DNA of 64,000 nt from positions 1 through 64,000 of the forward strand of contig JASANG010001881.1 in NCBI GenBank assembly GCA_030248215.1, read 5' to 3'. The translations under genes were made by a program, and so were the position numbers. Below, one piece after another: positions 11,407-42,160 of the stretch. Under the pieces are notes generated by a model. The model ran no database searches, was not told the DNA's origin, and saw only the letters and a list, made by a program, of their open reading frames with translations. Every line of letters starts with the position of its first letter. Within the stretch, counting starts at the first letter, position 1. This stretch comes from Enoplolaimus lenunculus. Lineage: Eukaryota.

Positions 11407-12276
11407 TCACTGATCAATTGCTAAATATCGATCTATGAGTTCCTTCGACGCTACCGTGTAATACCACCAATAAATTAAGTTAAATATAGCAAACATTAGC
11501 GGAAACAAGAGCCGGCAAATTTTATCGACCTTTGCCCCTTTCACACGAATAATTGAAGTCAGCCTGCGGGCAGCGCATCGTAGCATAGTCGTTTTACGTA
11601 AAGGTTCGACGCTGTTGAGCGTCGGCCTGTCTCGGGCGCGAATTAGTGGCATTAACGGACCGCTGGCATTGTTACCCGTAGGTGCTGACGGGTGGGACGC
11701 GAATCTTGGCGAGTAGAATGCCATTCCTCGGTTGGTAGTGAAACCTGTGGGATTTGGAGGACTTGTGATAAGGGTAGAAATGAGTGAAGTATCATCTGGA
11801 TTCTCTTGACGAGTAGATATATGACTTCCGGTATGATTATTTAGGGTTAAGGTTCCGGTTTTACCTCGCCGGATACGAAGTGAAGATCTTAGTATGGGTT
11901 GTGGGTACACTGGGTCAGTTGCATTAATCAACCCGTCAGAATCTTGACCAGAGGTCAGAGGGTAGCCAGCAGTTGCCTGGGCTGTGGATGAAATGTTATT
12001 GTTGAGGCAGCTGAAGTTAAACGCCGGAGACGGAAGCGGAACCGGATGTCGTTGTGATTTGTCACGATTGCGTTTTGAAGATGACCGGAATAGTGCCGGA
12101 CCGGAACAAATACTGGATTTGTGGGTGGAGCTAGGATTTTGAGACGAGATACAGTCGAAGCGAGCGCTACCTGGGGGTGCAGTCGAACAACTATTCGAAT
12201 GTTTGGAGAGTGACCGAAATCGTGGACTCGATGCTGGGAGGCTGATTGAGCTTGTACGCGATGGTACGTCGGTATC
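11407..12276 (-). CDS. LGIC shared last exon (long M3-M4 loop, M4, stop)
   Basis: TTTTTCCAG|GAT acceptor (phase 0), 290 open codons, M4 ending ...RYLAIDQ*. Confidence 0.9.
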   Translation of the reverse strand, partial: DTDVPSRTSSISLPASSPRFRSLSKHSNSCSTAPPGSARFDCISSQNPSSTHKSSICSGPALFRSSSKRNRDKSQRHPVPLPSPAFNFSCLNNNISSTAQATAGYPLTSGQDSDGLINATDPVYPQPILRSSLRIRRGKTGTLTLNNHTGSHISTRQENPDDTSLISTLITSPPNPTGFTTNRGMAFYSPRFASHPSAPTGNNASGPLMPLIRARDRPTLNSVEPLRKTTMLRCAARRLTSIIRVKGAKVDKICRLLFPLMFAIFNLIYWWYYTVASKELIDRYLAIDQ

Positions 12277-14311
12277 CTGGAAAAAGTGGAAAAGATTTAA
12301 AAAACAATTATAAAATACAGTTTTGAATTTTATAAGCTTTTGAAATTTGCAAAATATCTACTAAGTTTCACACTTTTGATTTGAAATCTTTTGTGATTTT
12401 TAGAAATTCTGAAATTTTTTCAAATGTTGCAATTTTTGAAATTGTTCAAATATTTGCTAAAACGTTTGGCATTTTTAGAATTTTAATTATAATTTTTTCA
12501 ATGTTTTCTATTTCTTCAAATTTTTCTATTTTTAATTCAAACAATTCTGAGGTTTTTCAGAATTTTCAAACTAAATTTTTAAAAAAATTTCAATATTTTT
12601 AAATGTTTCTAAATATTCAACGAATACTCAAATTCGACAGAAATGTCTCAGCGACTTTCCCAAAATTTTCAAATGTTGCCAACGTTTATAATGCCACAAA
12701 TTCTCTCGATATCCTAAATGATAAACTCCAAATGACTTGGAAAATTGTTTAAAAATTTTTAATCTTAGCGCAATACCTAAGTTTAGGTATCATAAGCTGC
12801 ACCGCGGCTTTGTAAACTTGCTAAACAAGCTGTCCTCCGAATCGGCCCAATTCAAAAATTATGGTATATGCCACTCAAACAGCGTTTGGCTTTTCGCTCG
12901 CTTTGATTGCGAACTTCCGTTCACGATATGTTACGAATCCCCAATAAGAAAATTCTAAATCGTCTAAGTAAACATTCTTACAATAAATGGTATAATGCTT
13001 GTTCCAGGGACATGACATCCGCTTCGCCAAAGCGTGCTATCATCAGAACAGTCGACTCCGTATCGCGAATGACCCAACGTGAAATTCATTGTCGAATCCT
13101 GTGTTGGCAGAGGTGGTAGCGCTAAAATCATATTAGTTCGTTGATCCTCAGTGGCGGATCCAGAAACTTACACCAACGGTCGATAGCTTGGCAACGAAAT
13201 ACTTGCAGCTGCAAGTATTTGCAACATAACCATTACTGTCATTCTGAATCTTGACATGAATTTATATGACTAATTTGCAGACGGCTGCAATAAACATCAT
13301 CTATAAGGTATAAATTATCAGTTTAACCGATGATTATGATGAATTATTTGCAAGCTATAGTCATACGTATGAATAAATTTTTGACGCATATTCATCATAA
13401 ATAAATTGCAGCTGCAAGTTCTTCGAATGAATTTCCGGAAAAACTTAATACAGTTGAAACGCTTTTCACATTTAGAACAGCATCTTTCAAAAGATGCTTA
13501 ATAGTGCAAAAACGAAGAAACTCTAAATTGAATCGCTTGCGTATTTTAAAACGCCGTTAGCTAACCGCTCGACGCTATTTCTGCATAAAAATAAACGCAT
13601 TTTTCAAAACGCGAAAAATGTTTTGTATTTTTGACGTAATTCCTTATAAAAAGGCAGATGTTGCATACTTGACTGAAGCGAATATGGAGTCGGGTTGGGG
13701 AACGTCCCTTAGGCAACCATTTTCTCGACTCGTTTCGGGATGAAATATGATACAGAGTCCGCTTACTATCGTCATGATAATCCGCTAAGTCGCGTTTTTT
13801 CCTCCGTTCATCTCTGGTCCACATTATGTCTTTGGTTTCGTGCCAGTTCACAATCGGAAGTTCGACAACGGTCAAAAATATAAATCCCATACATGAAAAT
13901 ACCCATACATCCAGCGCTTTGACGTAGGATACTTTCGGCAGAGTCCGTGCAACGTTGCCATATTGAAATATCATCGCCATTAAGCTGCTTACGCCTGGAA
14001 AAATTTATTCATTACAGATTTTGTAAAAATTCAACCCCAGCACGTTCCGAAATCCGTAAAAGTTTAAAAGGCAACGAAAACACAACTTACAAGATTGACC
14101 ATGGAGTTAAAGGCCGGAAAATGTGGGCTTTGGCCAACCTCGCATTCCTTTCTCACCGAATAATACCTTTAATTCTCCACTGCTAAAAGGGCCATCCTGT
14201 ATTAAGTAAGCTACAATTTTAAAATATTTATTTATTACGAGTTCGAATATTAAATTGTTTTGCACCTGAAAACCATATTTTTATTAGGATCGCAAAATTA
14301 TAATATAGTGC

Positions 14312-14390
<79 letters not shown>

Positions 14391-17300
14391 CATATATACA
14401 GATATATATACATACATACATATATAATATATTATATATATGTATAAGCAAATATAAGTAACAAGCTTTCTTGCATCGAATGTGTTATATCAAATAAATT
14501 TCTATTGAAAATACTTGAAACTAAGTAGAGATTGGCCTAAGTATCCAGGCCATGTTAAACTTTACCTAAAGTAATTCTTGCCGGCAACGCGCGGTAATCC
14601 AACCAAAACGCAATCCACGAAATGAAAACGGTTGCAAACGTCGGCAGGTAAATTTGAAGAACGTAAAATCCAAATTCACGTTTGAAAAAGAAAAATACGG
14701 TCAATTGATCCCACATTCCTGAAATTTTCAATAGCCAATCCAAGGCTTTGAGCTGCCGCCTTATTCATAATTTTTCAAATATTTTTTGTGTTTTAAAATT
14801 TTTTCAAGTGTTTAAACGGATATTTTAACGAAATCACCAAAATTTTAAACTCGAGTTATATGCGGTTGTTATGTTTCAGCTATTTGGTTTAGATAACACA
14901 TTGTGAGCTTCAGATGAACAATTTTTTGCGACAATACAGCATTGGACAGTTGGCCCATGTTACTTTCAGGGGCGTTCAGGTTTTTGGTAGGTCTATTAAA
15001 AAAGTAGGTTTAGATTCTTGATTACAGTTTTTTGCTTAGGCGTAGGCTTAGGAACTTATTTTTGCATCGCTTAGGGTTAGGCTTAGGCTTAGGAATACGC
15101 TTTTGCAACGCTTAGGTTAGGCTTAGGAACTCATTTTTGCAACGCTTCGGGTTAGGCTTAGGCTTAGGAATACGTTTTTGCAACGCTTAGGCTTAGGCGA
15201 AAGAATACGCTTTTGCAACGCTTAAGCTTAGGCTTAGGAACTCATTTTTGCAACGCTTAGGCTTAGGCTTAGGAATACGCTTAATCTACTGTTACGTCCC
15301 TTAAAGTAACATTGGCCAGACAGTTGGTGGGAGAGATATTGCTTATCTCTCATGGAATCATCACGGTCCCATAGCCACTTAAACAGTATTGAAACGGGTG
15401 AAAAAGGTACCCAAACAAAGTATGCTGTAATGGTGCTTATATGGAAGTCATGCAATTTTAATATCATTGCCACAAAATTTTAGCGTTTGATCTGTGTTGG
15501 AGACCAAAACCTGAAAACCCACGACCCCCAGATTAACCAGTCTGCTTTTCTAACCACTAAAGCGACACAGCAATGCAGCCTTTTCGCTAAACTCCATATA
15601 CCGTAACCAATAACCGCTTACCTGCCGGATACAAATAAGTATTTTTGAAATTTTTAAATGTGTATAATTCGAAATCAGGTAATTTGATTTCTTTGTCGAA
15701 TAAAATTGGATCACCTTCACGCCAATGCAAACGAACCGGAAATTTAAAACGAAAACTTCAACAGCCAGCTTATAAATAAAGAACAGAGCCTGGGGGGTCG
15801 CATGCAAGAATGTTAAAATCTCCCCTCTAAAATGTCTTAAAAGACGAGAAACTCCAAAAAAAAGACAATTTTAATTCTGAAGAATAATCGACAAAGGTTC
15901 AAAAAAATATTTTGCTTCTTTGCGCTCGTCCGACAAGAAATATTTAGACGTGGATATCTGCCCCCGAATTGATATCCTACCAATATCCTGTGCGCATATC
16001 TGTATAACAATTAACCGCCTGGCTGGGTATTAGCAGAATAAAACAACAAAATGTTGGATCGCTGGACCAGTGTAAAGAACATGGGCCGAACGATATTATA
16101 CAGCTTATTTCTGAGCCTAAGCCTAAGCATAAGAATGAGATTATTCTTAAGTCTAAGCCTAAGCCTAAAAAATAGTCTAAAGCTTAAGCTTATTCTATTG
16201 CAGTCCCACAGTAAAACCTTCCGCCCTTGATCTTTACATGGGGCCGATTGTTGGAATGTAAAAATAATATTGTACCGAATACCAAATGTATCATTGTCTT
16301 TCATGGAATTTGCGGCTAAATATAATCCGAAATTAACTGTGTGTTAATTATGAACCAATTGCATTGTTTCTCATATGTATGGTTCGTGGCATATAATTAA
16401 AACAGATTTTAAGATTAATAATTTTTGACAATTTTATCTCACTATTTTAAATAATTCATATTTGAGTTTGAATCGGGTATTAAATTTAAAAATTTGAGTT
16501 GAAATTGAAATTATAATTAAAACATACCTTTCCCATGTTGAACGAGTAGCTTTCAAATATCAACAAACATCTTTGAATATCCATTGGAAACGTTGTTAGG
16601 TCCATTTCACACGGCGCCGTCACTTTTACCCTGAAAAATAATTAACTTTACGATCAAAGACATAAAATTCATTGTAAATTCCAATGAGTTGATTAATTAC
16701 GTCAAAGTGAGAATTTGATATTTCTGTTTATTTCTGTGTTAATAACAGTAAACGTTAAGGTTGCAAGTGTTTCAGAACTCGGAATGTTGAGTTGATTCAA
16801 CTCGAGTTAATTAAACAACTCATTTGAAATTAAATCAATTCAGAGACAGTTAACTGTTATGAACTAATCAACTCATTGGAATTTACAGTGAAGAACGCTT
16901 AGTTTGTGCAGTCTTCAAAGTGAACGCTTGGAATAAAGCTTAGCAAAGCTTGATGTTTTTGCTAGAGGCAGATTTAGTATTTTCTGATTGACAAAACCAC
17001 GCGATATATAATTTCAAAACCTCACGAGCGAAGCGAGCCAGAAAGCAAACATTATTTAGCACAAAATTTTGGTTTTGATCATCTGACAGGCGAAAAATGG
17101 CGTTACTTTTTCGTTGTGTCTGTTGACTTTAAAAACGCCTGCTGTATGTGGGTAATAGCGCAGTCAACGGGGGGTTCAGAGCTCATGTCCCCTTTAGAGT
17201 GTTTGTAAATCATTTTAATATATTTTATCTATGTCTAACAAAGAAATCTGCTATCCTGACTGCGTTCAGTTCGAGAAACCAGTATCTGTTTTGATCTGAA

Positions 17301-19623
17301 GCTTTCGTCAGTAGCTAAGTTTCCGAGTATTAAAGTTAACTACATTGAAATAACACAAATTAGACTACAGTGCAGGAAACGAGACTGTCAACAGAGGTTG
17401 AAAATAATAACTGTAATGCATGCAAAAACACAAAATAAAGAAACATAAAAAATGTAAAAATAAAATAATTATTAACGATTTGATTGGACGATATTAACAT
17501 TGAACAGATTGACACCTGTGTCCAGATTCTCAAATGTGTATAGCACCTATCACCAGTTGGCGATTGGTTTGATAAGTTTTGCACCAGCCAATGAAAAACC
17601 TTGAAATTTGGCAAGTTCGTCACATATCGAAGGTTTTAATTGTGAGCAAATTTTGAGGTCTGCATATCTCGGAGTTGACTTATTTGACATCCATTACTAA
17701 CTGGCGACGGGTGCTACACATGTTTGAAAATACTGTCCCTAGAGTCATCTGTGCTAATCACTCGTTTCGGATTAACACAAGTTGTGGTTCTTTTTGAGGA
17801 TCCGTTCAATGGACACATCACCGTTCAATGGTTCGGAAGCTACAAGACCTATCACCGACTGGCGATCCATGCTACACACATTTGAGAATACGAACGTTTG
17901 ACTTACCGGTAATTAACCCAAACTGTACCGTTCGGATAGATCAAAAGAAAAATATTCGGGGTCGGCGAATTATGTACCGTCGAGGCTTTACTGTTCACAA
18001 AACAAACATTCGGAATCCAAATTCGGTCAACCATTCGGTAACTGAGGGTAACATTTTCCAGGCAACTGGTCAAATGGTCAAATCGAAGGCCTCTGTCGTG
18101 CCAAATTTGACTAAACAACAAATCAGCTTCGAAACTTTGTGAAATTTCTGAAATGGCCGACAGGCCTTGAACGATTAAATCGACCGCAACATCGACCCCG
18201 CGCGCTGGAGTTGTATCAGGATTGTAGCCGTCTAAAATGGAATTTAGTATTATTCGTGTTACACTGTCGTTTATATACGCGCACGGATTCGCCGGCATCG
18301 ACGATGACGTGTTCGATTGCGATTGGATAATGTAGTCGAGGTCGAATTGACCAATCGGATGACGCATCGGCGATGACGTGTTTGATTTTGATTGCATGAC
18401 GTCATCGAAATTGAATTGATACAGCGTCACGTTGCTGTTAGTCATTTCAGGGACTGATGCGGTGAGTTGAATCGAACCTGATGTTTCGATTTGTTTGGCG
18501 ACTTCTGACCCTTGAGGTTGATCATGTTGCGTAGCGGCGTGTTGCGATTGTTGCTTCGATGAACTGAGTCGCGGAAACAAAATGATCACTGCAAGCAGGG
18601 CGACTGCAATCGGATGTATGTTTGCCAGCGATGGTTGTTGAGCGACAAATGGTGCCTTAAAGACACCTTTCACAGTGAATCATGCGAAATAAAAAGGTTT
18701 GGACATAAAAACATCGATGTGATAAAATGCTTCGAATATACAACCGGTACAAACAAAAATATAAATATATATATAAGTATATATACATATATATACAGAT
18801 ATATTATATATGCATACATATATATACTGGATGTCATATTCTTTGTTTTACGGTAAAAGCTGTATTAGTGGACAAAAGGGCAAACACTGCCCTTCTGAAC
18901 AATTTTGTATTCGTAATACCAAGAGTGGTTGATCACTCTTTATAACAAGAGTGTGCAACTGGATACAGGTGTACTGAAGCATACTTTATTGTTAATCTCT
19001 TGCTTAACCCCCCCCCCCTGATTGAGAGAAGGGTCGAACAAAAATGCAACGTGTGCTGGTACATTCTTTAATACACAGAATGTCCCAGTTGCACACTCTT
19101 GTTATATACAGTGATCATCCAATATATACTGTTCCGCCCCTGTTCTTTTACTTTGGCCAGAAACTTGCATGAAAACTAAATTTGTGACCCGATTATCTAG
19201 AAAAGTACGGCACGTAAATTTGTAAGCCTAAGCCTAACCTAAGCGAAAAACTCGTAGCCAGAGGATGGCTAGGCACTCGGCCCCCTGCACAAATGTTTCC
19301 CCTTATACAATTGTTAATCTTGCTTGTAAGTCATAGCAAACCCTTGTATGCTCTTCCTGAGAATTTTTTACCTCACAAGAACGGTGTGCTGGCTACGGGC
19401 CTGCTAAGCGAAAATATTTATTCAACTTGTTTGCGCACAAACCCATTTTAAGTAGGCGCTACTCAAACCAGAATTGTTCAACCGCCCATGTCTGTAAGTA
19501 AACTACGCAATGGATCCCTTAGTGGATAGGTCCTACCAATACCTGTTGTGGACCATTATTCCTAACCAGTTGTCCTTGTGAAATGGCAACGTTGCTTCGT
19601 CGAGGACCAAACGGCGAAGGCAT
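11407..19623 (-). CDS. Same channel locus, isoform B: join(19623-19543 tentative, 18655-17907, then the five shared exons 16630-11407), about 798 aa
   Basis: Exon 18655-17907 is open, has a hydrophobic signal-like stretch ([12 protein letters not shown]), encodes the N-terminal half of the ECD and ends TAC CG|GTAAGT (phase 2), matching the shared acceptor TTTTCAG|G at 16630. The first exon is inferred. Confidence 0.8.
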
Positions 19624-22600
19624 ATTTTATTTTTAAAATCATAAATATTTAATATTTTTCTACAATCTGAAAGTTTAAATTAATTTTGAAATGTATTTTT
19701 TTTCAAAAACCAAAAATTCGCTAAAAATCTGGCAGATTCCGGTGTCGTCGAAAGTATAACACGTGGTGAACGGTTATAAGCTGTTCTCGCTTTATATCAA
19801 AAAGTTAACGTTTTGTAAAGCGAAAAAATGTATTAATTTTAATTCTTTGAAATTTATTTAATGTAAAATACTGTCATCGTAGTATACTTCAACCAAAATT
19901 GTACCGTATGTTCTGTTTTTATAGCCCAAGAGTCCGACAGTAGGACTTAGGGGGTCGATGAGGTCGGAAACTTTGAAAATAATTTATGGTAAGAACTAAA
20001 TGTTCGCTGAGACAATATATTCGGGCCCGTAGCCAAAGGGGGCAGGGGGGCTCAGCCCCCGTCGAAAAATTTTGGTCTCCCCTAGAAGATTTTGAATCTT
20101 GCTTGGAAGTCGTTGAAAACCCTTGAATTCCCCTCCTGAAAACTTTTGGGCCCACCAGCAAGGTGAGCTGGCTACCGGCCTGGATATATTCAAGTGACCT
20201 GGCCCTACTCAAACCAAAATATACCGGTTGCTCCGATCCCAGTGGATCCAAAATCGGGTACGTTTCGGCAGGTTCGTAGCCAGGACCAATATGTTACAGG
20301 AAGCCAAAAAACGTTTCGGGATCGTAAGGTTATTTTGCTTAATTTATAACCAGGGTCTAAATTTTTGTTAGATTTCCGTCGGAACCAGCACCAGATATCC
20401 AGTCAAATACTGCGGTTGGCAAGGATACGGTATTTGGTATACTCTCTACAAATCAGTACGGCATTTATACACATCACTGGGGCGAATCCAGAACCAATTA
20501 AGGCGTCACTTTACAGGCACGGATGGGAGGACCCATTTTGCCAAAACGCCTACTTTGCCAAATGGACCAACGCTGCGTAAGTCGACGCAGGTATTGAATT
20601 TGAACCTGGCAATATTTTGGTTTGAATGAGATTCACGAATAGAACGGCCTTTAGATCCACATTCATCTGAATGAACTTTTCTTTTGGGGTACATTTAGTT
20701 CCAGTTCCCGCACCCCCCCTGGAAAAACGAACCGTCATCTGGTTGCCATTCAAAAGCTGAGTTTAGCCTCTCCAATGATTTTGCCAGAATTGCACTGACG
20801 TGTTTATAACGACGTGGGCCCATGTAAAGATCAGTGGTGGAACGTTTTACTGTGGGATTGCAATAGAGTAAAGCTTAAGCTTTAGACTAATTTTTTGTCT
20901 TGGTTTAGACTTGGGCTTAGGAATAAAGCTTATAATACTGTTCCGCCCCTGTTCTTTAACATCGGCCAGAAAATCAAACAAATATCGCAGTACCAAAGGC
21001 GTCGTGTGAGGATTTCGTTTCGGAAAGGCTTATAATTTTGCAAGCGAGCGTAGCGAACGCCAAAATAATATTTGAATCTCACGTTATTCTACAGCCTGTG
21101 CCAGCCTCTTTTTTGGTGTTTTTCAAGAAATTTCGTATCATATATCCTTTGTATGCCATACTTGGATACGTCCCTGTCAAATACCACCGCAAAGTTTTTT
21201 AGTCAAACTCAAAATGAACTAAAACCATTTTGTTATCAAATTCAACATCTGAAAGCGATTCAATTGAAACTTTTTTGAACGGAAGTTCCAACTGGCGCAT
21301 TGAACTCGAGCAAAACAAAAGAGTTGCACACACCAAATCTTAATAGTGTTTTGGTCTTTGGTTTCGGCCATTGTAAAGAACAGGGGCAGGACTGTACGTA
21401 TAAGCATATTCCTAAGCCTAAGCTTAAGCCTAAGCCGAAGTGTAAGAATGAACATATTCTCAAGCGTAAGCGTAAGCCTAAGCCCAAACCAAGCAAAAAA
21501 ATAATCTAAAGCTTAAGTTTACTCTTTTCTAGTATCACGCGGAAAAACGTTCCGCCCCTGATCTTCACATGGGCGTTGTTTTCGATGGCTAAGTTAGAAT
21601 TTAAGTTCGGGAACATATAAGGACACGGAAGATTTCTTGAAGCAAAATGTAGCAGAATAAAGTTTGTTTGCGAGCAGTATCCTAGCGACTTCAAAAGCGT
21701 CTATTTTCTTATCCTTCCAAGTAAACTTTACAAGTACACCGCTTATGCACGCTTCCTCTGGTAAACGTCTATTAGTTTTTAGGGTAGCCAATAAAAGTTT
21801 ACCTGGTGGATGGAAAATGTTCAGCCAATCCGATCAGTGCTGCAACTACCCGCGGGTAGCCGCAGGTAAATGCAGGATGGGTAGCAAAATTATTTTGACA
21901 CAGGTATACCCGCTGGTAAAATATATCAGCCGGGATGACGTTATACTTGGTGTGCGTCGCCCTGCGGCGCTGGACAGCGCTGCACGTGCCAAAAACTTTA
22001 CGTATAACTCATTTACGTTGACGTGCGGCAATAAAGCATTAAAATTGTCAAAAAGTCTTGGGTCGTCCGCAATGCACAAAAGTGCTAGTGAATGCATAAA
22101 AATCTGTATGCAATTTTTTTATTATAGAACAATCACGTCTATGTGCTATGAAACTCGTAAACACAGTATGCTGGAAACTTGCCCAAAATACGTATGTAGC
22201 GTATTCCAGCTTTAACTATATAGAGATTTTGTATTTATGTGTTTGAGCATAAATCTAACAACAGTTTTCACACATTAATCGTAGCAGCCAATCAACAACT
22301 AAATGTTGCCAGTTAACATAGCAAACGCTAAATTAGTTTCGAAACATTTCATATAAAACTGCTAAAGTTGTATAGAAAATAATGACGAGATTGGAACAAA
22401 TAACCCGCAAGCTGCTGTCACAAAAACATGCCAAACACAAATAAAACAGCGCACGGACGACCCACAGCTACCACGGCCGTCCGCAGAAAGTTACACTTGG
22501 GGGGAGATGCACCGAATAATTTTTGGGTGACCCTAAAATTGCAGTTCAAGATTGTTTACTTTTAGACCGAGTCTATATAGGGCCACCAGCCGAATTTGGG

Positions 22601-25600
22601 GTGGCACGGCTCCCCACTGTTCCCCCGGTGGGACGCTTTTAACAGCTACTGTATAATTTGACCTTTCAATAGTTTCTGAAGCCTGGGGTGGCCGATATGA
22701 CCTTAAGGGTAAGACGCGACCATGGACCATTACAGGTAGAAGGCACTCCTGGTAGGGTAGTTTTTTTGCAATGTCAAGTTAATTTTTTAGCTTTTTCAAA
22801 GATTTCTAAAATATGAGTATTATCTTTATAAACAGTATGAATTTTAATTTTGACGTCTAATTAGTCACAGGTATGCCACTGATTTCACACGTGCAAGTTT
22901 TTGCTGCGAGACCTTACAGCTGCAAATTGCACACAGAACCTGCATCTTTTTATCAGCCAATGAGAAAGCGGCTGTAATAAATTCAGCGAACATGCACGGT
23001 TATTCACACATGTGAACTAAATTCCTGGCTGTGATTTTTAATGAATTATTTGTAGCTGCAAGTTTTTCGACCTCTGGTTAATAATACCGCCCTCGGAGTA
23101 ACGAACCATCTTATAATTGGGGCCAATAGCTTACCTTCATGGATCAACCCGCAACAAAACCATTACAATTAGGGTCGTAATGTATGCCTTATTTATCACC
23201 AGTTGATGATAGGTCCTGTAGCTTTCAAACCAGTACATGCTGACGCTCAGAACTCAGCACATTTTTCGCTTACGATTTGCTCTGCTCTTGTATCAATCTT
23301 GAGTTCAACAACTGCAATAGTTAGTCTGTTTGACAACCTATCATTAACTAATCATAGTTACTATACACATTTGAGAATATGGGATAACATTAAAATTAAA
23401 CATGGGACCCGCTTGCAACTCAGGATGTTCATAACAAAGTTAGATTCAACGCGACATTCAAAGTTGCAGAACCGGATCCTTTGAACAAGGCAACAGACTA
23501 CGTGGAGCACAACATATAGCTGAACGAACATCATGAGCTAAGCAACAAGCGAATAGCCAAACGCAATTTTAGTACAAAATCAAAGCATCAAACTCTTCGT
23601 TCTAAATACAGAAGGACGCCCCTGGTCATCATTCTGCTGAATATCTGTTGGCAGACAGCGATGGACGTCCGCAGAAAAATTTCAAACCAAAGAGACAGAA
23701 AAACGATTACGGAGCCAAAGATTTTCACTCTTGGTAAAAAACAATGATCAAATTAATTTGATGCAGGCCACAATTAAAAAAACTAGTTCATCCCCAGCAG
23801 TGTGATTGCACAAACTAATCCGGATCTGATTACCGCAATACCGGAAGCAAACGATGTCTGACTCAAAAAATGATATAAAATATCAAAAATTTTGAAAAAT
23901 CTGTCTTCTTAAACCATATCTCAGTGGCTCTCTAAGACAGTCAAGCCAGGAATACAAGTCGGTATTTAGGCGATATATTTCTGCAAATTTTTGCTAAATA
24001 ATAGATATTTCCACAGAATTCAAAATTAACTCTTAAGCCCCATTCCACACGTGCAAGTTTTTGCTGCGAGGACTCGCAGCTGCAACTTGCACTTGCTGGT
24101 TTTGTCCAAAATCCCGTTCGAAAAACTTACAGCTGCTAATAATTCGCTAAAAATCTCAGCTTGGAATTTAGTTCACATGTGTGAATAACCATGCAAATTC
24201 ACTGAATTTATTGCAGCCGCTTTCTCATTGGCTGATTAAAAAAATGCAAGTTCTGCATGCAATTTGCAGCTGCAAGTTCTCGCTGCAAAAACATTGCACG
24301 TGTGAATAGAGCTTTACGCGTATAACTTCCTTAAATATGAAATACCCTCCCGAAATAAAATCTCGGCAAAGTATGACGTTGCAGACAACCTCGTTACAAA
24401 CAAGAAACTATATTTCGTCTCTAATAAGTACCCTTGGGTGTAATTTAACTCAACTAACTCTAGGGTGGAGGTTATACCACTAGAATTAGCTCTGATCAAC
24501 TTATAATTTCAAGTAAAGATTCCTATTAATGATACAATATCAGCGGTGGCGAATAGAGAAATTTTTGAAATGGGAATCATGTGATTTTATTAATAATAAA
24601 TTCACGGAACCGAGTGAGACGCCAGACACAATTTTAGCACTAAATCTTAATACAAAGTTCTAAATTTCGTACTCCGCTGGGGCGTTAGACGTGAGTGAAG
24701 GAACCATATGGATAAGCCAGGGTATGAAGTATTCTCAAATGACTGTAGCACTTTTGACCCATGTAAAAGAACAAGTTTAAATTTCAGGCCATTTTTTGAT
24801 TATGCTTAGGCTTATGCTAACACTGTTTTCAACACATAGGTCGATGCTAATAGGCTTTAGGCTTACCCTTTTTCAACGCTTAGGCCGTTGCTTAGCGTTA
24901 CATGCTTATACACATACGGCCCTAACTGTAACATAAGACGGGCATTTGAAAAATACACCCACGGTAAGTCAGATCCATATTTAATAATTTGAAAATGTCG
25001 AACAAACGCCGTATTTCTAAATTTCGAACTGCAAATTCTTCTAATTTTACCTGCGTTAGCTATCAAAGAATCCTTGTATACGCCTCTGACAGTTATCTTG
25101 GTTGAAAATATTTCTCAATGAATGTATGTAAATATATATGTATATGTATATATACTGCAAAAAATGGTGAGTCAAATTGACTCTCGCCGAAATAGGCTTT
25201 TCCTGACTACACAAACTGAGTCACAATTTGACTCCGCCTGAGTCAAATGTTTGAGTTTGTGTAGTCAAGAAAAGCCTATTTCGGCGAGAGTCAATTTGAC
25301 TCACCATTTTTTACAGTATGTATATTTACTCGAAGTTTTCAAAACGTTTCATCAACAAATTTTCAAAAAATTAATATTATTTACTACACTTCAATCTACG
25401 ACGAGGTCTCTCAGTCAGTCACCCCACGGATTCTTTTGTTTTTTCTAAATCTTAGCCCCCGCTCGCCTACCTGTGGGTAGGTCCTTTTAAATCGTCTTAA
25501 GTGTGACTGAACCTTTATGCTTAATGGCTCTAAAATTCACTTAAAGAAAACTGGTGAACTGTTTCAATATGCACTCATCTTTGATTCTATTGTTTCAGTG

Positions 25601-28600
25601 CAGTTTAAGTGTAAACATTCCTTGAGGGCAGAGGTGGAGCCAGGGAGGTTCCGGGCAGCGCTGTGGCTCCAGCTACCCCATATCCCACATTGGGGGCAGG
25701 GCGAGCAGCCGGGGGCCCGACTTAGCCGACCAACCTTTACGTCATCTCGCAAGGCAGGTAGGACGAGGGCCCTATTTTTGGGGTCTTTGCTCATGAATAA
25801 CTAACACAAAAAACAGTTTCGTCCGATTGGATGGCCTGTGCCTGGGTGGGCCCCCTTTGGATCCAGCCTCGTCAACATTACAGATTCAACCAGCTTTCAT
25901 ATATTTTAAACTACAGTTGTTAGATTTCAACAAAGCTTAAAAATTTATTGCCTTATCCTGAGTCAGGTGGTAAATCTTATGTCCAAACCAGGTAACCAGG
26001 CCTATTTATTTTTGCCAGAATCACCCTGCAAGTATAGCTGCATTATTTATCAAGGTACTACTATATTTGTGGCAACGTCTATTAGAAAAAGCATACCAAA
26101 GGCTTACATTAATGTGGTCATGTATTAAATAGATGTGTTCATATTCTCAAATGTATGTAGCACCTATTATCAGTTTGCGATCAGGTCGTGTAAATTTCAA
26201 ACCAGCCAATGAAGAAATTCAAAATTTGATCCAGGATGTATTGCAATTTTCACTGAAATTTACTTTTACGCCGAGTTTAACTTTTGTCACAGCGGCGGTT
26301 TGCTTGCTTGAAAACATACTACTGAATATTGGTAGTAGGTGCTATATACATTTGAGAATACGGACCCTTTCGGCGATGCCTAGATTGTCAAATGTGTGTA
26401 GTCGTATCAGCAACTGACCGTAATGGTTCCGCTATACTTGCCGCGCGCCGTTGGACGCCGCCGCGAACGGCTGCGCGCCGCTGTGCGCCGTTGTAAAACT
26501 TTTTATTTAAAATTACCGCACGCCGCCGTGTGGCAGCGCGAGTGGCGTACGGCGGCGTGCGGCGGCATGCAGCGACGCGCGGCGGCATGCGGCGGCGCGC
26601 GCCGGCGTCCGACTGAGCAAAATATAGCGCAACCCTTACTCGTATAATTTTTGAGCCAAACAGGAGTTATCTTTCAAATTTGGCGTAGTAAATCTCTTTA
26701 TGTTACCCTGGTTTCGGATACAACCGGAAGGCATGTCTACCTCCGCGTCTTGCAGAAAATCGAACTTTGGTTCCGGCAGCATTTTTGCCAAAAGTTCCGG
26801 CGATTTCGGAAGTGAAATTTATTGTATTTGAACAAACGTTAATGATATTCAGTAAAGTTTGTTTGAACCGTTAAGACAGTTGCAAGCATTGATTACTAAC
26901 ATTTCACGAAAACAAAGATCAAAAACAAATATCCGACAACAAGTCAATTTAGTTCCACATCCGGCTCCTCCGGCTTCGAAGAAAAAATTTGTTGACCTCC
27001 GGTTCCGGTTGCACCCTGCCTGTCTTACGCGTGCTAAGCCTAAGCCTACGCCTAAGTCTAAGCGTAAGAATGAGCCTATTCTGAAGCCTAAGCCAAGCCT
27101 AAATCTAAGCCTAAGCAAAAATTTAGTCTAAAGCTTAAACTGATTCTGTTCAGGGCCAGTCCTGAAAACGATCCGACCCTGTTCTATACATGAGCCCAGT
27201 TCAGAATGCGGTCAGCGGCTGCTACCATACCGAAAGAATCAATTATCAGCTCTACAGTTCATAAAAAAAGTTAACTTTTCTCTCAACTTTAATAATCTCA
27301 TTGTTGTGTTGGATAAAATCTTACAGAAAAAATCATTCAAATTTTCGGTTTAAAAATCAACTACGAACCGGAAACGGTCTCCTGGACGGTTTCAGTGGGT
27401 TTGGCTTGTACCCGGTAACAATAGCGTAGCTGTGAACAACACTTAATAGACATTGGGAGCGGGTCTATTCATTTGAATATTTATATTTGACGCAAGTATA
27501 TTTTGCTCCAGTATCAAATGGAAAAAACATTAATAAGGTTGCAATGAGAGAGCATTAGATAACCATAAGGGCCTGTAAATTAAGCCTAAACCTAAGATTG
27601 AACCTAAAAGAATAAGCCTAAATACAGGCTTAATCCTAAAACGTCTCAGGATATTATGTCCGCAGGTCTTTCTGTCTGCCAATGGGCAGGTCTCTGTAAC
27701 TTGGACCAGGACGTTTATCGAAGGATACCGTGCCGCCGCCGAAATTCGGGCAGGGATCAAACAAACGTGGTCCCCTGCACACGGTTTTGTAAGTTAATGC
27801 CTGTTTCTAAATAAAAAAGTAACATCAAAATTTGCTGAAAACTAAACGTAAACAGGTTATACTTTAGTTTCGGTTTATCGAATGTTTATTCGTCGTCAAC
27901 GTTAAAATTCGGGCACTCATATGATATCAAACGGACAGTCAAAAATCGAATACTGTTTCGGTTCTTCTACCCAAATGTTTGGGAAGGAACCATTATCAAT
28001 TGTAGGCCTGTGGCCTGTTGAGGGTGGCGGGGAGACAAATGTTGTGAAACGCAAAAATTGTACGGTAGCAACCTTATCATTTTATCACCAAAAATTTCTA
28101 ATGCAAAATTAGTGACATTATCATTTTCTACAAAACCTTTTCTGTGAGGAAAAATTGTAAGGTAGGGAGGTACCTTACCATTTAATCACAAAAAAATTTC
28201 GGAGGAATACGCCCGCCCCCTCTGTTCATCACCATAAAATATCTGATACGCCCCCCCAACACCCCTTATTTGGATCCGCTCGTGCCTGTTTCAACTGTTA
28301 TTTTGTTATAAATCAAATGCCAGTATTCTCAAATGTGTATAGCACCTATCGCCAAACAGAGGTGACCAAACGTCGCTGTTTCAACAACGGTACCTATTTC
28401 AAGTAAATAATCACAATGGTAACTATTACATTCAAGAAAATAAAAGATAAAAACGAATATTTAAGAGAATATAATAACATTAATGTGGTCTTTGTTTCAT
28501 GATTTACCGCTCTGTATAACCGTTATACTATTATCATAAGTGGCTTCAGTGTTTAAAAATGGATTACTATAATTCTGCAAGATTATGAAAAGAATAGGGG

Positions 28601-31600
28601 TGGAACAGTATTACAAGCATATTTCTAAGCCTAAGCCTAATCCTAACCCTAAGCGTAAGAATGAGCATATTCCTAAGCCTAAGCCTAAGCCTAAGCTAAA
28701 CACAAAAATTAGTCTAAATCTTAAGCTTACTCTATTGTAGTCCGACAGAAAAACGTTCCGCACCTGATCTTTACATGGGTCTGAACATAATCGTAATACA
28801 TTCTTGAACACTTTCCATTCACTTTAAGAGTTTGCCAGGTTCTATTCTAGCATAACTCTTTGATTACCGAATACACAAACCTAATTCTACCACAATCGTA
28901 GCCAGGAATTCGGTTCTAGAAGGTGATAATTAGGTTTGAAAAATTTGGTTGCAAGCCTAGCGAACCAGAAAAATTTTCTCGACCTTTGAAGGCTATTTTA
29001 TTGCATATGAATGTGGCTTATGCCGAATTGTTCAAGAAATTTCGGGTGGGTAAGTGCCACCATTCGCCCCTTGTATACACCGCTGAATTCCACTGAAATA
29101 GAAACAAACTGAGAGATAGCGGTGGATCCAAAAATTTCTGACGAGGGTCGCAGGATGGCTAAAGTTAAGAAACGCAATTTTTACTGCATGCTAGATATGT
29201 AAAAATTTCCGAAGTGGAAAAATTATAAGAGGGCATCATGATTTTATTACAAAAATTTTCTGACAGGGGCGTACGCCCCCTTTGTTCTTGATCCGCCAAG
29301 CGCTGGGAGACAACAAATTCCTTAGACTCTACGATAGTTTCGCTCCCGTCCCGCCAGGGCTCATATTTATTCATTGGTTCTTTGTTATGTTTACCTTCAC
29401 AAATAAATTAGCTTATTTCTCGAAGTGCATTTGTTGCATTTTGCCTGTACAAAATACCTTTTTAACTCGGACGTTTTATTAAGAATTTTAATTTAAAATC
29501 AAAACAAACGGTATACAGATCCAAGATTTATCGTTGGAACCAGTTTACTGGTATTGCGCCTAAGCCTAAACGTTGTAAAACTTGTGTTCCTAAGCCTAAA
29601 CCTATGACTAAGCAAAAATTGTAGTTTAGAATCTAAAGCTACTCTTTTATAGACCCGCCAGAATCCTGGACGCCCCTAATAGTAACATGGGCCAAAAATA
29701 TATACCGGAAGGCGACGGCAGAGATGAGTCCAACGACTGATCCGGCCGTGCTGGACATTTTGCAACGGAAATGGTTCATCTGAAGCATACAGTGTGTTTT
29801 CTAGACAAATCGTTTAAAAAATTTCGCGTGGGGGTTACATACACCAAAAATAAAATCGTTGCCCCATCAATGCAATTAGTAAATATCTTAAAATCCCCCC
29901 AAAACATGCTATAAAATGCGTCGCCAATATTACTTTGAAGGGCGTAACAGTAGATTAAGCGTATACCTAAGCCTAAGCCTAAGCGTTGCAAAAATGAGTT
30001 CCTAAACCTAAGCTTAAGCGTTGTAAAAGCGTATTCTTTAGCCTAACTTAAGCGTTGCAAAAGCGTATTCCTAAGCCTAAACCCTAAGCCTAAGCGTTAC
30101 AAGAATGTGTTCCTAAGCCTAAGCCTAAGCAAAAAATGTAATCTACAATCTAAAGCTACTTTTTCCATAAACCCACCAGAAACCTGGACACCGCTTAAAG
30201 TAACATGGGCCAGGTTCGTTTGAGAACTGAAACATTTTGGAAAACAAAATTTAAAATGACGTTTGCGTCCACATTTTTTATGAAAATAGCAAACCTGGTT
30301 GAAAGAGTTCATTAATATGACGTCATTGCTTTTGACAATTTAATGCGTTAAGGCGCTGGGTGGAGCTGTTCGGGTAGTAGCGCACCGTCGTGTCGCACGA
30401 CAAGATTAGAACCACCCATAGAGGCTTATAACAATTTCAATTAGGGGCCTATGTAGTGAACAGGGCTGGAACATTAGTATAAGCATATTCCGAAGCTTAA
30501 GCCTAAGCCTAAAGCCAAATCACAAAACTTAATCTAAAGCTTAAACTGACTCCATTACAGCCGCGAACCGTCCGTGTTCTATACATGGGTCTACTTAGCT
30601 ATCTCTCCATAAACACATACCATTTGGTTATCATTCGACTTAATCCGAGTGATAATTTCAGTCTACGAAAGAGTTGTTATTTCTTTATTTTAAAATTGGA
30701 AATATTTAAAATTCAAAAAAATGACTAAAGTGTAAATTGACTCAAATTTATACTCTTAGCTACTAAGATAAGACACTGCTTAACAACGGTAATACATAAC
30801 AACAAAAAGCCAACACTTGTGTTTGATTTCAAAGTATGCTACCATCCGGAACTATTCTAATAAACGGATTAACACCGACAGGGGTGAATACAAGGGGATA
30901 ATTGGGACATATCCCCTTCCGGAAACTTTTCGATAAACAAGAACATAGCTGTAAAGTTTTCACGTCTATTGGCAAAACAACTTGTAGATAAAAGGTTACC
31001 ACCCCCTCATAAGCGGAATTTTTGGCTCTGTAGCCAGCTTAACATGGTAGTGAGGGGCGAAAAGTTTTATGTGGGGTATAAAGAGATTTTACGTTATTTA
31101 CAATCGGAACTACGCCTATTCTTGGGGGGTGGGTGCAATCTTTCTCGGAAGGCAGTCCCCCCCGCTGCCATCGGCTGCGTTCGCGCCTGCGTTAACAGTG
31201 TATATTGAAAACTAAGACATATACAACGAGGGCTAAAGGGAATAAGCCATGAAGTAAACTGTTAACAAAAAGAAATTATGACGGTGGGAGCCGTTGGCAA
31301 CGCGAAACGGGAACCCCCTCGCCAAGTTGAGCGTATGAAGCTGCTAAAGATGGACATACTGAGCGATATCAAAGTAACAAGCAATGTTTTGTCTAACAGG
31401 AGGGCCCAACGTAGCTACGGATTCAGGATTTTGTAGGAAGGGATCCGAGGTAGGCATGCCCCTCCTGAAAAGTTTTCAGCCCCACCGCCTTAGCAAGGCA
31501 AGCTGGATACGGATCTGGCTATGTCCTAGCATTAGTCTAAATATTCCATAATCTAACGCAGAGACTAAAATTTTATTTCAATATTTGCAACTTCGTAGAC

Positions 31601-34600
31601 ATCCGCATACTGAAATCTTATACACATAAAATTGCATAAATTGCAAGCAACCAAACTGAATCGCATCTGTTCCACCAGCGCAGTTTGTAATAAAAAAATT
31701 AAACAAAAATAAAATAAAAAATATAAAAAAGAAAAATATTAACAAATATAAAACGAAAAAACATGCCTTACGGTCACAGAAACCGAGTTATAAACAACTT
31801 AAATAAATACTCTAAAACCAAGCTTATCTCGTATAATGTATAGAACAGGCCTGTAACAGTAACATAAACATATTTCTAAGCCTAAGATTAAGCGTCCACA
31901 CTGCAAAAAATGATGAGTCAAATTGATTCTCTCCGAAATAGGCTTTACGGGACTAGACAAACTGAGTCAAATTCGGCTCCGCCAGATTCAAACGTGCGAT
32001 TCAGTGAGTCAAATTTGACTGTGGCGCTGTCGAATTTGACTCAGTTTGTGTAGTCCCGTAGAGCCTATTTCGGAGAGAGTCAATTTGACTCACCATTTTT
32101 TGCAGTATGCAACCAAAACCTAAGCAAAAAAGTTTCTGCGTGTTGTATTTAGTGTCAAGTTGTTGCTTCAAGGATTAGCTTGCGAATAATTGCAATTATT
32201 GAATTTAGCGGTTCGATTTTTTAATTTAAAAATTCATTTTTTCCAATTAAAAAATTCAATGTTTGAATTTAAAAAATTCAAGTTTTCAAAATAAGAACTC
32301 AATTTTAAAAATTCAATTTTACAACTTACAAAATTTAACTTTTCAATTTAAAAATTCAAATTTTCAACTTAAAAAAATTCAATTTTTCAAATTAAAAAAT
32401 ACAATTTTTCAATTTATAGAGTTTAATTTTTCAATTGCAATTAAAAATAAACTTAATAAAATGCGTATGGGCAAAAATGTGCATCAGTTCGTGTACAAGA
32501 CAATAACAAAACAACAAAAAGTCACTACGAACACATAAATAAAAAACAATGCAAAAAATCGGCTCCAGTGCCAGGATTACGGCTGATGCCCACGGACCCC
32601 AAGGCCTTTGATGATCAACCGAACAAGGCAAAATGTACCTGTAGTTGACCCAAACCGTTCCATTCGGAAATATCAGCAGAAAAATGTTTGGCGTTGGCGA
32701 TGAATGAATCTCAGACTTACGACTGTTCGCTAAACAGACGTTCGGGATCCAAATTCGATCGACCATTTTGTAGCCAAGGGTGAAATTTTCAATACAATGA
32801 GTCATGTAATCATAGCGAAGGCCGCGGTCTTGCCAGATTTGACTGAATAAAACGTCAACTGAAAATGTTCGCCGAATTTCGCTCATATCTGAAGACACAA
32901 CTCGAGAGCTTTGTTTTACTCAGTTGAGTTCAACTTGTTTATGCGAGTAAAAGTTGAGCCAAAATCATAATGCCGGCCAATGTATAGAACACGGCCACAA
33001 CAGTAGTATGCACAATATTAATTGTCTTGCAATTCTAAAATAGCCACTTTCGTAACTTCTCAAGACATAATAGCCTTAAACTGCTCAGAAATTAATGTCT
33101 GAAATCGTTTGAACAAAAATGTGTTATATTTAAGAAATTACTGTTGCCAATTTATAAGACATATTTTTTCGGCCCATATATAGAACAGGGCCGGAACAGT
33201 AGTGTAAGCATATTCTTAAGCCTAAGCCTAAACCTAAACCTAAGCCTAAGCGTGTGGATGAGCGTATTCCTAAGCCTAAGCCTAAGCAAAAAGGATAGTC
33301 TAAAGCTTGACCAGGCCCTCTTGTATACATCGGTCATAATGCCTATATTACGTATGGTGGACATTCTAGCTTCATTTTATGTAATGCGGTATTGTAAACA
33401 TATACACAAACACTGCAAACCCGTACACTAGAGAATCCAGAGAAGGGTGTGGATAGTACACCCCCGTCAGAAAATATTTTAGTCATATCTTACTCGACAT
33501 CGTATATCGGAGCCTAACCCCAAAGCCTAAACCTAAGTAAGATAACCTCAGTCAACATCAAAGACTACGCAGTGTCTCGCGAACTTAGGAACGTCGGCCG
33601 AACAACGGCTCGGCGTTGGAAGACAGAGGCAACGTCACTGGGGCTAAATCTAATTTTTATGGATGCGGGTTTGAACGGAAGATCATGCGTTTTCTTAGCT
33701 CGCTCTCTCGTCAAATTTAATAATTACTACCCATGTAGCGTATGCTTAGACCGTGTCGGCAATATTAATATTGTAGGAAAAACAAACCTATTTTTAATCT
33801 AGACGGTCGTTTAGATTTCGGACCAATACCAGGTCACCCTAAGTACGGTCTTGAAACCATGCCTGAACCTAAAGACCACGCCTAGGCATGAGTACAATGT
33901 CGGCCAATGTAAAGAACAGGGGCGGAACAGTGTTATAAACATATTCCTAAGCCTAAACCTAAGCCTAAGCCTAAGCCAAGCAAAAAAGGAGTGTAAAGCT
34001 TAAGCTCACTATTTTCTAGCCCCACAAAAAAGGTTACGCTCCTGATCTTTACATTGGACCAATGTCTAAGCCTAAACCTTTTACTAAAACAGCATTTAAA
34101 GAAATTTCGATTTGGAAAAATTATGCTTGCACCCTCTGGAAATGTTTTTGCCAGTATCAACTACTGGTTCTACAAGCTAATCTTAATTCTAAACCTATTT
34201 TAACAGTTAGCCTAAATCGCATTTTTAAATTGAGGCTCTATAAAGCAGATTATTTTTAGGTTAACTGATTTTTCGCTCACCTAAACGAAATTAGGCTTAA
34301 TTTTTGTTCTCAGAACATACCAAGGAAACTTTCACGAACTAATTCAATCTTATTTACTAGCGGTTTCAGAGGGGGGCAGTAATGACGTATGACCCTCTGT
34401 TAAATAATTTTTTTGTGATAAAATGAAAAGGTGCGTGCCTTGCATTTTTCTCACTGAAAAGATTCGCACATGTATAGCATACAAGTAAAAATTGCGTTTC
34501 ATTAACTTTTGCTGGTTTGCACCCCTATAAATATCTGGATCCGCCGCTAATCTGGTTACTATTCTTACACTGCAACAAATGGTGAGTCAAATTGACTCTC

Positions 34601-35112
34601 TCGGAAATAGGCTTTTTCTGACTACACAAACTGAGTCAAATTCGAACTCCACCAGAGTCGAATTCTGTTCACTATGTCGCACGTTTGACTCTGGCGGAGT
34701 CGAATTCTAACTCAGTTGTGTAGTCAGGAAAAGCACATTTCCGAGAGAGTCAATTTTACTCACCATTTTTGACAGTGTACTTACCTGAAAAATCCTGAAC
34801 CAACATATCAATGACAACATTGACGCCCTGTCCTCGCGGGGGTATACTTGGATCGTAGGTTTCAAAAATTCGCTTAATAACCAACTGCGCCAAAGTGTCG
34901 TTGTTCCCGGTGCAAGATCCGTTTTGTTTTTGCAACGCTGCAATTGCATCTTCATAACGTGCGGCCATTTGATTTGCTTGCGTTTGCGATAACAACAATG
35001 ACGTAATGTTTATGACGTTTTGTGCCGTCATCTTGTGACACAGCAATGACGTCATTGTTGTTATTAACATGCAGCAGCTGTGAGAAAATATTATTGACCG
35101 ATAACGTAACAT
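11407..35112 (-). CDS. Cys-loop ligand-gated chloride channel subunit, ACC/LGC-46/47-like. Isoform A: join(35112-34785, 32888-32639, 16630-16528, 15736-15622, 14718-14566, 13994-13669, 12276-11407), 714 aa
   Basis: Exon lengths sum to 2145 nt with matching phases. Motifs: loop D FSQIW, loop A RIWIPNVC, Cys-loop [15 protein letters not shown], loop C YLYPAGMWDQL, M1, M2 [21 protein letters not shown] (PAR anion motif), [14 protein letters not shown]4 [23 protein letters not shown]. Family assignment is by motif recognition only. Confidence 0.85.
13669..13994 (-). CDS. LGIC shared exon (M2 C-half, M2-M3 loop, M3, start of intracellular loop)
   Basis: TTTTTCCAG|GC acceptor; [30 protein letters not shown]; donor CAA|GTATGC. 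Confidence 0.92.
14314..14445. repeat. (TA)n microsatellite in LGIC intron
   Basis: Seen directly in the sequence. Confidence 0.95.
14566..14718 (-). CDS. LGIC shared exon (end of loop C, M1, PAR motif)
   Basis: ATTTCAG|GA acceptor; MWDQL...[14 protein letters not shown]...[18 protein letters not shown]; donor G|GTAAAG. Confidence 0.93.
14952..15317 (-). mobile_element. Merlin-like telomere-repeat MITE, subfamily 2 (GGCCMATGTTACTTT TIR) with internal tandem units
   Basis: TIRs GGCCCATGTTACTTTCAGGGGCGT / ACGTCCCTTAAAGTAACATTGGCC; TSD GGACAGTT/AGACAGTT; repeated TTGCAACGC(TTAGGC)n units. Confidence 0.8.
15622..15736 (-). CDS. LGIC shared exon (loop F to loop C), with non-canonical CG acceptor
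   Basis: Translates [38 protein letters not shown], exactly filling the gap between the flanking exons (phase 0 in, phase 1 out). Donor G|GTAAGC; acceptor reads TTTCCG. Confidence 0.85.
16065..16245 (+). mobile_element. Merlin-like telomere-repeat MITE
   Basis: Family termini and CCTAAG core; degenerate TSD. Confidence 0.7.
16528..16630 (-). CDS. LGIC shared Cys-loop exon
   Basis: TTTTTCAG|G acceptor; [34 protein letters not shown]; donor AAG|GTATGT. Confidence 0.93.
17907..18655 (-). CDS. LGIC N-terminal module B (signal-like segment and N-terminal half of the ECD)
   Basis: Lies within ORF 17903-18673; YNPDTTP...[15 protein letters not shown]...[13 protein letters not shown]...[10 protein letters not shown]; donor CG|GTAAGT; in-frame acceptor TTTAAG|GCA. 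Confidence 0.88.
19543..19623 (-). CDS. Candidate first coding exon of module B ([27 protein letters not shown])
   Basis: ATG in AAAAT-ATG context, TTTCAG about 45 nt upstream (19672-19667), phase-0 donor CAG|GTATTG matching the phase-0 acceptor at 18655. Module B has no in-frame ATG ahead of its hydrophobic segment. Confidence 0.45.
21366..21575 (+). mobile_element. Merlin-like telomere-repeat MITE
   Basis: Family TIRs; TSD TTGGTTTC/TTGTTTTC (7/8). Confidence 0.75.
24036..24313. mobile_element. PIF/Harbinger-like MITE (GCTGCAAG-rich family; related copies at 35370-35643, about 22884-23070 and about 13200-13430)
   Basis: TTA|AGCCCCATTCCACACGTGCAA ... TTGCACGTGTGAATAGAGCT|TTA. Confidence 0.7.
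29922..30211 (+). mobile_element. Merlin-like telomere-repeat MITE, subfamily 2
   Basis: Matches 14952-15317 and 36126-36268; ends TAAAGTAACATGGGCC. Confidence 0.7.
31898..32107. mobile_element. CACTG-terminal palindromic MITE (also 25153-25298, 34568-34777, partial near 3294)
   Basis: Long inverted arms CACTGCAAAAAATG.TGAGTCAAATTGA...AAACTGAGTCAAATTCG. Confidence 0.75.
32639..32888 (-). CDS. LGIC module A exon 2 (loops D, A, E)
   Basis: CTTCAG|AT acceptor; [25 protein letters not shown]...[12 protein letters not shown]...[10 protein letters not shown]; donor AG|GTACAT (phase 2). Confidence 0.88.
34568..34777. mobile_element. CACTG-terminal palindromic MITE abutting the module A donor site
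   Basis: TA|CACTG...CAGTG|TA with about 90-bp inverted arms. Confidence 0.8.
34785..35112 (-). CDS. LGIC module A exon 1 (signal peptide and alpha-1 helix)
   Basis: TTTTTAG 11 nt before ATG ([25 protein letters not shown]...); [28 protein letters not shown]; donor G|GTAAGT (phase 1) matches exon 32888. Confidence 0.82.
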
Positions 35113-41716: not shown

Positions 41717-42160
41717 GGCCAATGTAAAGAACAGAGGCGGAACAGTATTATAAGCATATTCCTAAGCATAAGCCTAAGCCTAAGCCTAAGCCTAAGCGTA
41801 CGAATGAGCATATTCCTAAGCCTAAGCCTAAGCGTAACAATGAGCATATTCCTAAGCCTAAGCCTAAGCGTAACAATGAGCATATTCCTAAGCCTAAGCC
41901 TAAGCCTAAGCGTAACAATGAGCATATTCCTAAGCCTAAGCCTAAGCCTAAGCGTAACAATGAGCATATTCCTAAGCCTAAGCCTAAGCCTAAGCGTAAC
42001 AATGAGCATATTTCTAAGCCTAAGTCTACTTAAGCCTAAGCATAAGACTGAACATATTCCTAAACCTAAGTCTAAACCGAGCAAAAAATGGTCTAAAGCT
42101 TAAGCTTACTCTTTTCTAGTCCCACAGAAAAACGTTCCGCCTCTAATATTTACATGGGCC
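41717..42160 (+). mobile_element. Merlin-like telomere-repeat MITE with about six internal tandem units
   Basis: TIRs GGCCAATGTAAAGAACAGAGGCGGAAC / GTTCCGCCTCTAATATTTACATGGGCC; perfect TSD GAAGCGCC. Confidence 0.88.

Follow-up and report, generated by a model that had tools for sequence, protein, structure and literature searches.

Two divergent N-terminal modules, predicted to be alternatively spliced, precede a single pore exon set at a putative amine-gated chloride channel locus of Enoplolaimus lenunculus

The window analyzed here, the first 64,000 nucleotides of contig JASANG010001881.1 from the Enoplolaimus lenunculus assembly GCA_030248215.1, carries on its reverse (-) strand a putative Cys-loop channel gene in which two N-terminal modules, A and B, lie upstream of one set of exons for the Cys-loop and the pore. 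Module A consists of two exons. The first, A1 (34785..35112), begins with an ATG and encodes a moderately hydrophobic leader, the N-terminal helix and beta1/loop G up to a phase-1 GT donor, and was detected with the N-terminal profile described below at an independent E-value (iE) of 1.5e-5; an AG 11 nt ahead of its ATG (spliced-leader position 35123) could serve as a candidate trans-splice site. The second, A2 (32639..32888), runs from an AG acceptor to a phase-2 GT donor and encodes the beta1-beta2 loop and loops D, A and E (PF02931, E 7.5e-16). Module B is a single exon (17907..18655) for a signal-like hydrophobic region, a Ser/Gln-rich spacer, the N-terminal helix and loops G, D, A and E (PF02931, E 7.4e-23), and also ends at a phase-2 GT donor (17907). 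The 14-kb interval between the modules (18656..32638, same strand) is devoid of channel exons, and dispersed repeats make up 27% of it.

Five shared exons follow on the same strand: S1 (16528..16630), encoding the Cys-loop and loop B behind a strong AG acceptor that would serve either module (PF02931, E 4e-9); S2 (15622..15736), with loop F and the first part of loop C, whose acceptor is CG instead of AG; S3 (14566..14718), with the loop C Trp, transmembrane helix M1 and the PAR motif; S4 (13669..13994), with M2, M3 and the start of the M3-M4 loop; and S5 (11407..12276), with a long, lineage-specific M3-M4 loop, M4 and a TGA stop. The last three each matched PF02932. Both A2 (at 32639) and B stop within one Arg codon, whose third base is given by S1. 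Splicing of A2 to 16630 would take an intron of 16,008 nt, and that of module B an intron of 1.3 kb. With S2 taken from 15736, the isoform models were free of internal stops over 714 residues from the A ATG and 771 residues from the start of exon B, and neither a frameshift nor an internal stop was found in about 3.3 kb of coding sequence. A2 cannot be joined to the 5' end of module B in frame (just two internal AGs would permit it), so that A and B forms would be mutually exclusive. A preliminary description of this locus had given the same coordinates, open frames, phase-2 donors and shared AG acceptor at 16630, all of which were confirmed on re-checking. It had also given each module its own signal-like segment; that of B is strongly hydrophobic (best 11-residue Kyte-Doolittle mean, 3.5), and that of A moderately so (2.0; median of 126 full-length homologues, 2.1).

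We searched the window by tblastn with both isoform models and with two profile hidden Markov models (HMMs) built from 137 N-terminal and 153 C-terminal homologue segments, from which the rows of the window were omitted; the profiles were run on 642 six-frame pieces in which stops were read as X. Only A1, A2, B and one S1-S4 set were recovered. Neither a second Cys-loop/transmembrane set nor a third N-terminal module was detected in the 64 kb, the next-best hits having an iE of 0.57 with the N-terminal profile and 0.96 with the C-terminal profile. The single Cys-loop/transmembrane set, and the lack of a second one between 32.6 and 18.7 kb, had been described before, and the tblastn and stop-tolerant profile searches agree. 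The anatomy of two N-terminal modules and one pore set is thus real and far beyond chance, and the duplicated halves are in phase with the one common half, as is expected of a multi-subunit locus of the unc-49/avr-14 kind.

With regard to the relationship between the modules, the 59 of 84 identical residues counted previously were reproduced, and over a longer homologous stretch 73 of 127 residues (57%) were identical (BLASTP E 2e-59). Trees were built from 50 hand-picked labelled proteins out of 208, leaving 49 rows for the N-terminal part and 45 for the C-terminal part after length filters; the C-terminal tree came from a quick fallback method rather than a careful search. Among the 49 rows, A and B were sisters in one starred clade (support 95/85), and they have in common residues that are rare in the family. 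Over 125 codons, the proportion of synonymous differences (pS) was 0.73 and that of nonsynonymous differences (pN) 0.25, with Jukes-Cantor values of 2.6, unreliable at saturation, and 0.31. Four-fold sites differed at 17 of 28 positions, identity by codon position was 72, 78 and 43%, and 35 of 72 identical residues were encoded by different codons. Silent sites are near saturation while pN is far lower, which indicates that the duplication is old and that both copies have been constrained most of the time. Purifying selection on both modules, as proposed in the preliminary description, was borne out by this dN/dS-type comparison (pN/pS bootstrap range, 0.26-0.45).

How long module A could have persisted without function was assessed by simulation. 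A neutral module A retained its frame and splice sites in 57-69% of the runs at 0.01 substitutions per site, in 6-18% at 0.05 and in 0.5-2.5% at 0.1, the last being a small fraction of the A-B distance. Given such rapid decay, A is either still in use or lost its function very recently. At the 35 columns with at least 90% conservation in the 137 homologue segments, A keeps 32 residues, its three changes being conservative (S/T, F/Y and K/R), and B deviates at none.

The 5' end of module B is less clear-cut. It had been called complete, which we did not find to be the case: there is no in-frame Met ahead of its hydrophobic segment. The in-frame ATG closest to this segment (18706) is separated from it by a TGA eight codons on (18682-18680), and a further ATG at 18683 lies in a frame shifted by one base. 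The acceptor AG at 18656 is weak, since 237 of the 746 AGs in 18.8-32.6 kb score as well or better. A search for a B start exon returned 20 candidates of the ATG-donor type, 12 between the modules and eight upstream of A, none of them decisive. B may begin with a small exon somewhere in the 14-kb interval, for which a micro-exon at 23140-23135 is the best-looking candidate; if B is a real isoform, this interval should hold both its promoter and its start exon. Mutually exclusive cassettes behind a common upstream exon were also considered and rejected: a phase-1 AG is present in both modules, and that of B (18666) is very weak, 526 of the 746 AGs being as good.

Two further features of exon B were observed. 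An internal AG at 18148-18147 (-), some 9 nt away from the site homologous to the A intron, could be joined to the A1 donor in frame. Its use would yield a third, chimeric form, three residues shorter; its score is moderate (71 of the 746 AGs are equally good), and it may be a chance product of conserved codons. In addition, the spacer contains an internal duplication with a 69-nt period (18419-18295, -; 79% identical over 56 nt), which lengthens the Ser/Gln-rich leader.

The CG at the S2 acceptor (15738-15737, -), which the preliminary description had missed, bears on both isoforms. Its flanks conform closely to the local acceptor consensus, which just one of the 746 AG sites fits as well, and the donor ahead of S2 falls at the place where three unrelated homologue frames enter an intron (P0005, P0006 and P0012). 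The CG may be due to a wrongly called base, to a variant or to a lesion, or may be a rare site that splicing tolerates; in the parts of the literature on non-AG acceptors that were accessible, no support for CG acceptors in nematodes was found.

In order to define what the two modules would exchange, binding loops were mapped through alignments to GABA-A gamma2 and beta2, with loop definitions from the available text of PMC4006026. The modules hold loops G, D, A and E, and the shared exons hold the Cys-loop, loops B, F and C, the pore and the intracellular loop. At the positions of loops A, D and E that face the pocket, A and B do not differ: the aromatic position of loop A is Cys in both, the loop D core is the same, and loop E differs by one Phe/Tyr change at its edge. 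Differences are concentrated in the leader, the N-terminal helix, beta1, the beta1-beta2 loop and the stretch just after loop A; the beta1-beta2 loop of A has two Arg found in at most 1% of the 137 homologue segments. The earlier proposal that the complementary face is swapped therefore holds in so far as loops G, D and E reside in the modules, and fails in that loop F lies in the shared exon S2 and the pocket positions are identical. Because these positions are the same and loop F is shared, differences between the isoforms are more likely to concern assembly, gating or expression than contacts with the ligand. Pore, ion selectivity and intracellular loop would be common to the two predicted subunits, with a ligand pocket that is almost identical; the main differences would be in the cell type, the assembly partners or the efficiency of gating. 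By analogy with LGC-51 and LGC-52, the A form, which evolves faster, may be a modulatory subunit: LGC-51 alone gave no response, and together with LGC-52 it raised tyramine potency (available text of PMC8536830).

As for the receptor family, the predicted protein has the PF02931 extracellular domain, a 15-residue Cys-loop, the loop D Trp and the loop A W-x-P expected of a Cys-loop subunit, and the four PF02932 transmembrane helices with a PAR motif at the end of S3, before M2, expected of an anion channel of this superfamily; the PAR motif predicts anion selectivity (PMC8536830, text in part). Homologue searches returned 84 and 103 proteins, with names including LGC-53, LGC-54, LGC-55 and dopamine-gated chloride channel. 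By its closest sequence relatives, the gene falls among the amine-gated chloride channels of nematodes (LGC-51 to LGC-56). The trees contain amine-group members only, with no ACC or MOD-1 outgroup, and place the gene within the sampled set: they gave no supported orthology to any named member, the modules were placed, with weak support (86/72), beside a clade made up of proteins from Plectus, Steinernema, ascarids and filariae, and the shared part was not resolved. The position of the loop D arginine is Ser in both modules according to the alignment, and amine-gated channels have a polar residue there (PMC4006026, in the text available). Judging from the family, amines of the dopamine/tyramine type, not acetylcholine, would be the first ligands to expect.

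The long M3-M4 loop and last exon gave 33 weak matches among 1.84 billion representatives, mostly to M4, and no close orthologue. A query with A2 among proteins of similar length yielded no candidate and was uninformative. From 74 candidate metagenome stretches, two loci of 1.7 and 4.2 kb were retrieved, too short for their architecture to be read. Inspection by eye of the nematode-like metagenome contig L001 (1-1689) suggested that the last transmembrane exon of one channel gene is followed, after about 400 nt, by the beginning of a paralogue, in which both intron positions of module A are uninterrupted.

The window, which contains no N characters, was taken to be nematode DNA. Telomere-like hexamers are mostly TTAGGC (n=260, vs 34 for TTAGGG), which is the usual nematode telomere unit; acceptors are of the TTTCAG type, the named homologues are all from nematodes, and the closest protein in the collections searched has 65% identity, on module B. 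Upstream on the (-) strand, an eyes-absent-like gene (46499-43863, canonical introns) has its 3' end at 43863 and an EYA domain in its last exon (TIGR01658, E 1.6e-19); it seems to include introns of 4.6-6 kb, and its 5' exons (58137-57526 and 51501-51079, -) are candidates only. Long interstitial arrays of TTAGGC-like units repeating every 42 nt, and a 60-nt array with 25 copies, are located at 58684-61304, 41773-42075 and 46650-48149, along with many short copies, and TTAGGC runs also occur within dispersed 200-nt elements. Copies of an element of about 210 nt with inverted ends, resembling a miniature inverted-repeat transposable element, were seen in the module A intron and in the interval between the modules (34567-34779, 31897-32109 and 25151-25320). 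The assembly resolves tandem arrays of 1.5 and 2.6 kb within the window, which, together with the absence of N characters, argues against a crude assembly collapse.

Based on these results, we regard it as an even call that the window holds one amine-gated chloride channel locus, in which two old 5' modules are alternatively spliced to one pore set to give two subunits; this and the following likelihoods are matters of judgement, not computed values. Such a locus would have arisen through a tandem duplication, followed by an old loss of the 3' half of the upstream copy. Separate promoters would start transcripts at A or at B, each module would be spliced to the same shared exons S1-S5, B would be skipped in A transcripts, given that A2 cannot join its 5' end in frame and that its acceptor is weak, and the CG acceptor would be tolerated or mis-called. 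Half an extracellular domain cannot alone make the 10-strand sandwich (PMC4006026, available text); selection on A therefore presupposes exons to pair with, which in the window only S1-S5 can provide. With somewhat less confidence than that, we propose that alternative promoters swap the front half (leader, N-terminal helix and loops G, D, A and E), that A and B forms co-assemble with A as the modulatory one, and that the CG is natural or mis-called. Two selected N-terminal modules on one pore set, as in the preliminary description, thus remain the best single reading, although that description had overlooked the absence of an own start codon in B, the non-canonical acceptor of S2 and the identical pocket-facing positions.

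Several observations weigh against two functional isoforms. The signal-like segment of module B is not preceded by an ATG in frame, and the acceptor of this exon is weak. At S2, the three canonical in-frame alternatives to the CG need poor donors or lose conserved residues, and all nine of the other acceptors examined in this gene and the eyes-absent-like gene are AG. Module A has changed at 12 of 58 conserved columns, vs six of 58 for B, its branch is longer (0.82 vs 0.44) and flagged as long by the tree tool, and it has more private changes with all seven outgroups (p<0.05 for one of the seven); selection on A may be relaxed. Furthermore, none of the 162 homologue proteins examined combined a near-identical C-terminal part with a truly different N-terminal module, the one outlier, P0082, being explained by a mis-predicted exon. 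Complete tandem paralogues are common in the channel family (P0001, P0002 and locus L001), which favours a truncated tandem copy as an ordinary origin. The greater divergence of A and the occurrence of complete paralogues are what one would predict if A were the leftover 5' half of such a paralogue, whose 3' exons were recently deleted, are absent from the assembly or lie outside the window, with only B feeding the shared exons. The dispersed 200-bp repeats in the interval could have seeded a deletion or mis-join, and the matching splice phase, expected of any whole-gene duplicate, does not discriminate. This would nevertheless require the loss to fall within the last ~0.05 substitutions per site of a history of more than 1 per branch, and all five 3' exons to have gone without remnant, yet both A exons and their splice sites to have been spared; no gap characters mark missing sequence either. 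We consider a leftover A less likely than two isoforms, but the main rival to them.

A single recent deletion that took both the 3' half of A and the promoter and start exon of B would account at once for the missing 3' set and for the missing ATG of B, leaving a chimeric A-plus-shared gene with a stranded B, or a young pseudogene that has since gained the CG. The CG acceptor and the TGA eight codons after the upstream in-frame ATG do resemble early lesions, and four eyes-absent-like exons nearby have none comparable. An open coding sequence of the length found here and the intact conserved columns of B speak against recent decay, the B acceptor ought to be strong if B was formerly an ordinary internal exon, and the CG is also explained by a single base error or variant; we hold this history to be improbable. 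Least credible by far, in our view, is the expression of A as a short secreted or membrane-tethered fragment (A1-A2 plus intron read-through) that modulates assembly: the frame stays open for 68 codons beyond the A2 donor and includes a hydrophobic stretch, but the read-through has no similarity to homologues, T-rich introns yield such stretches by chance, and it is improbable that half a beta-sandwich would fold, or that its pocket residues would stay under selection.

Regardless of the outcome, the gene anatomy is real and unusual. Provided that both junctions are real, the locus amounts to a chimera experiment made by nature, in which two long-diverged front halves sit on an identical pore and intracellular loop. 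It would single out the parts that the N-terminal helix, the beta1-beta2 loop and the flank of loop A play in assembly and in gating, in a receptor group that is confined to nematodes and of pharmacological interest. It would also illustrate how tandem paralogues can become a single gene for several subunits, by a path opposite to that of the textbook nematode cases. Were A a recent leftover, it would count as an ordinary truncated duplicate. A literature search that was thin on subscription journals returned no account of a Cys-loop gene in which two duplicated N-terminal halves serve as alternatives, which is weak evidence of novelty.

Among known systems, the gene resembles LGC-51 to LGC-56 (50-68% identity) in its PAR motif, loop B Tyr, loop C Trp and a polar residue in place of the loop D arginine. 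In LGC-51/52 heteromers the potency of tyramine is shifted (PMC8536830 and PMC4006026, available text). These are, however, separate genes, and the gene described here has a much longer M3-M4 loop. The avr-15 A and B forms presumably differ by an N-terminal extension ahead of a common binding domain. Like avr-15A/B and Hco-GLC-5A/B, the forms predicted here would be nematode Cys-loop isoforms differing at the amino terminus, although in the available text of PMC8841521 Hco-GLC-5B is described as a form shorter by 69 residues, and neither pair is shown there to involve a duplicated binding-loop module. A parallel is provided by insects, in which exons 3a/b/c and 6a/b of RDL, exon 3 of GluCl and exons 4/4' of alpha4 and 3a/b of alpha6 of the nicotinic acetylcholine receptor (nAChR) are tandem-duplicated alternative exons that alter extracellular residues near loops D, E or F while the pore is constant, and RDL variants differ in their affinity for gamma-aminobutyric acid (PMC2064938, in the text available). 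Those are single short internal cassettes with few changes, whereas here about 125 homologous residues and a private leader are involved, with 57% identity and a different intron structure, and the alternative unit is probably chosen at the 5' end of the transcript. Finally, in unc-49 one N-terminus is joined by splicing to any of three tandem C-termini, and avr-14A and B differ in their C-terminal parts (PMC8841521, available text), as the preliminary description had correctly contrasted. In both of those genes the N-terminal part is common and the C-terminal part variable; the design read here from sequence alone is reversed, with a duplicated N-terminal half and the Cys-loop, loops B, F and C and the pore in common.

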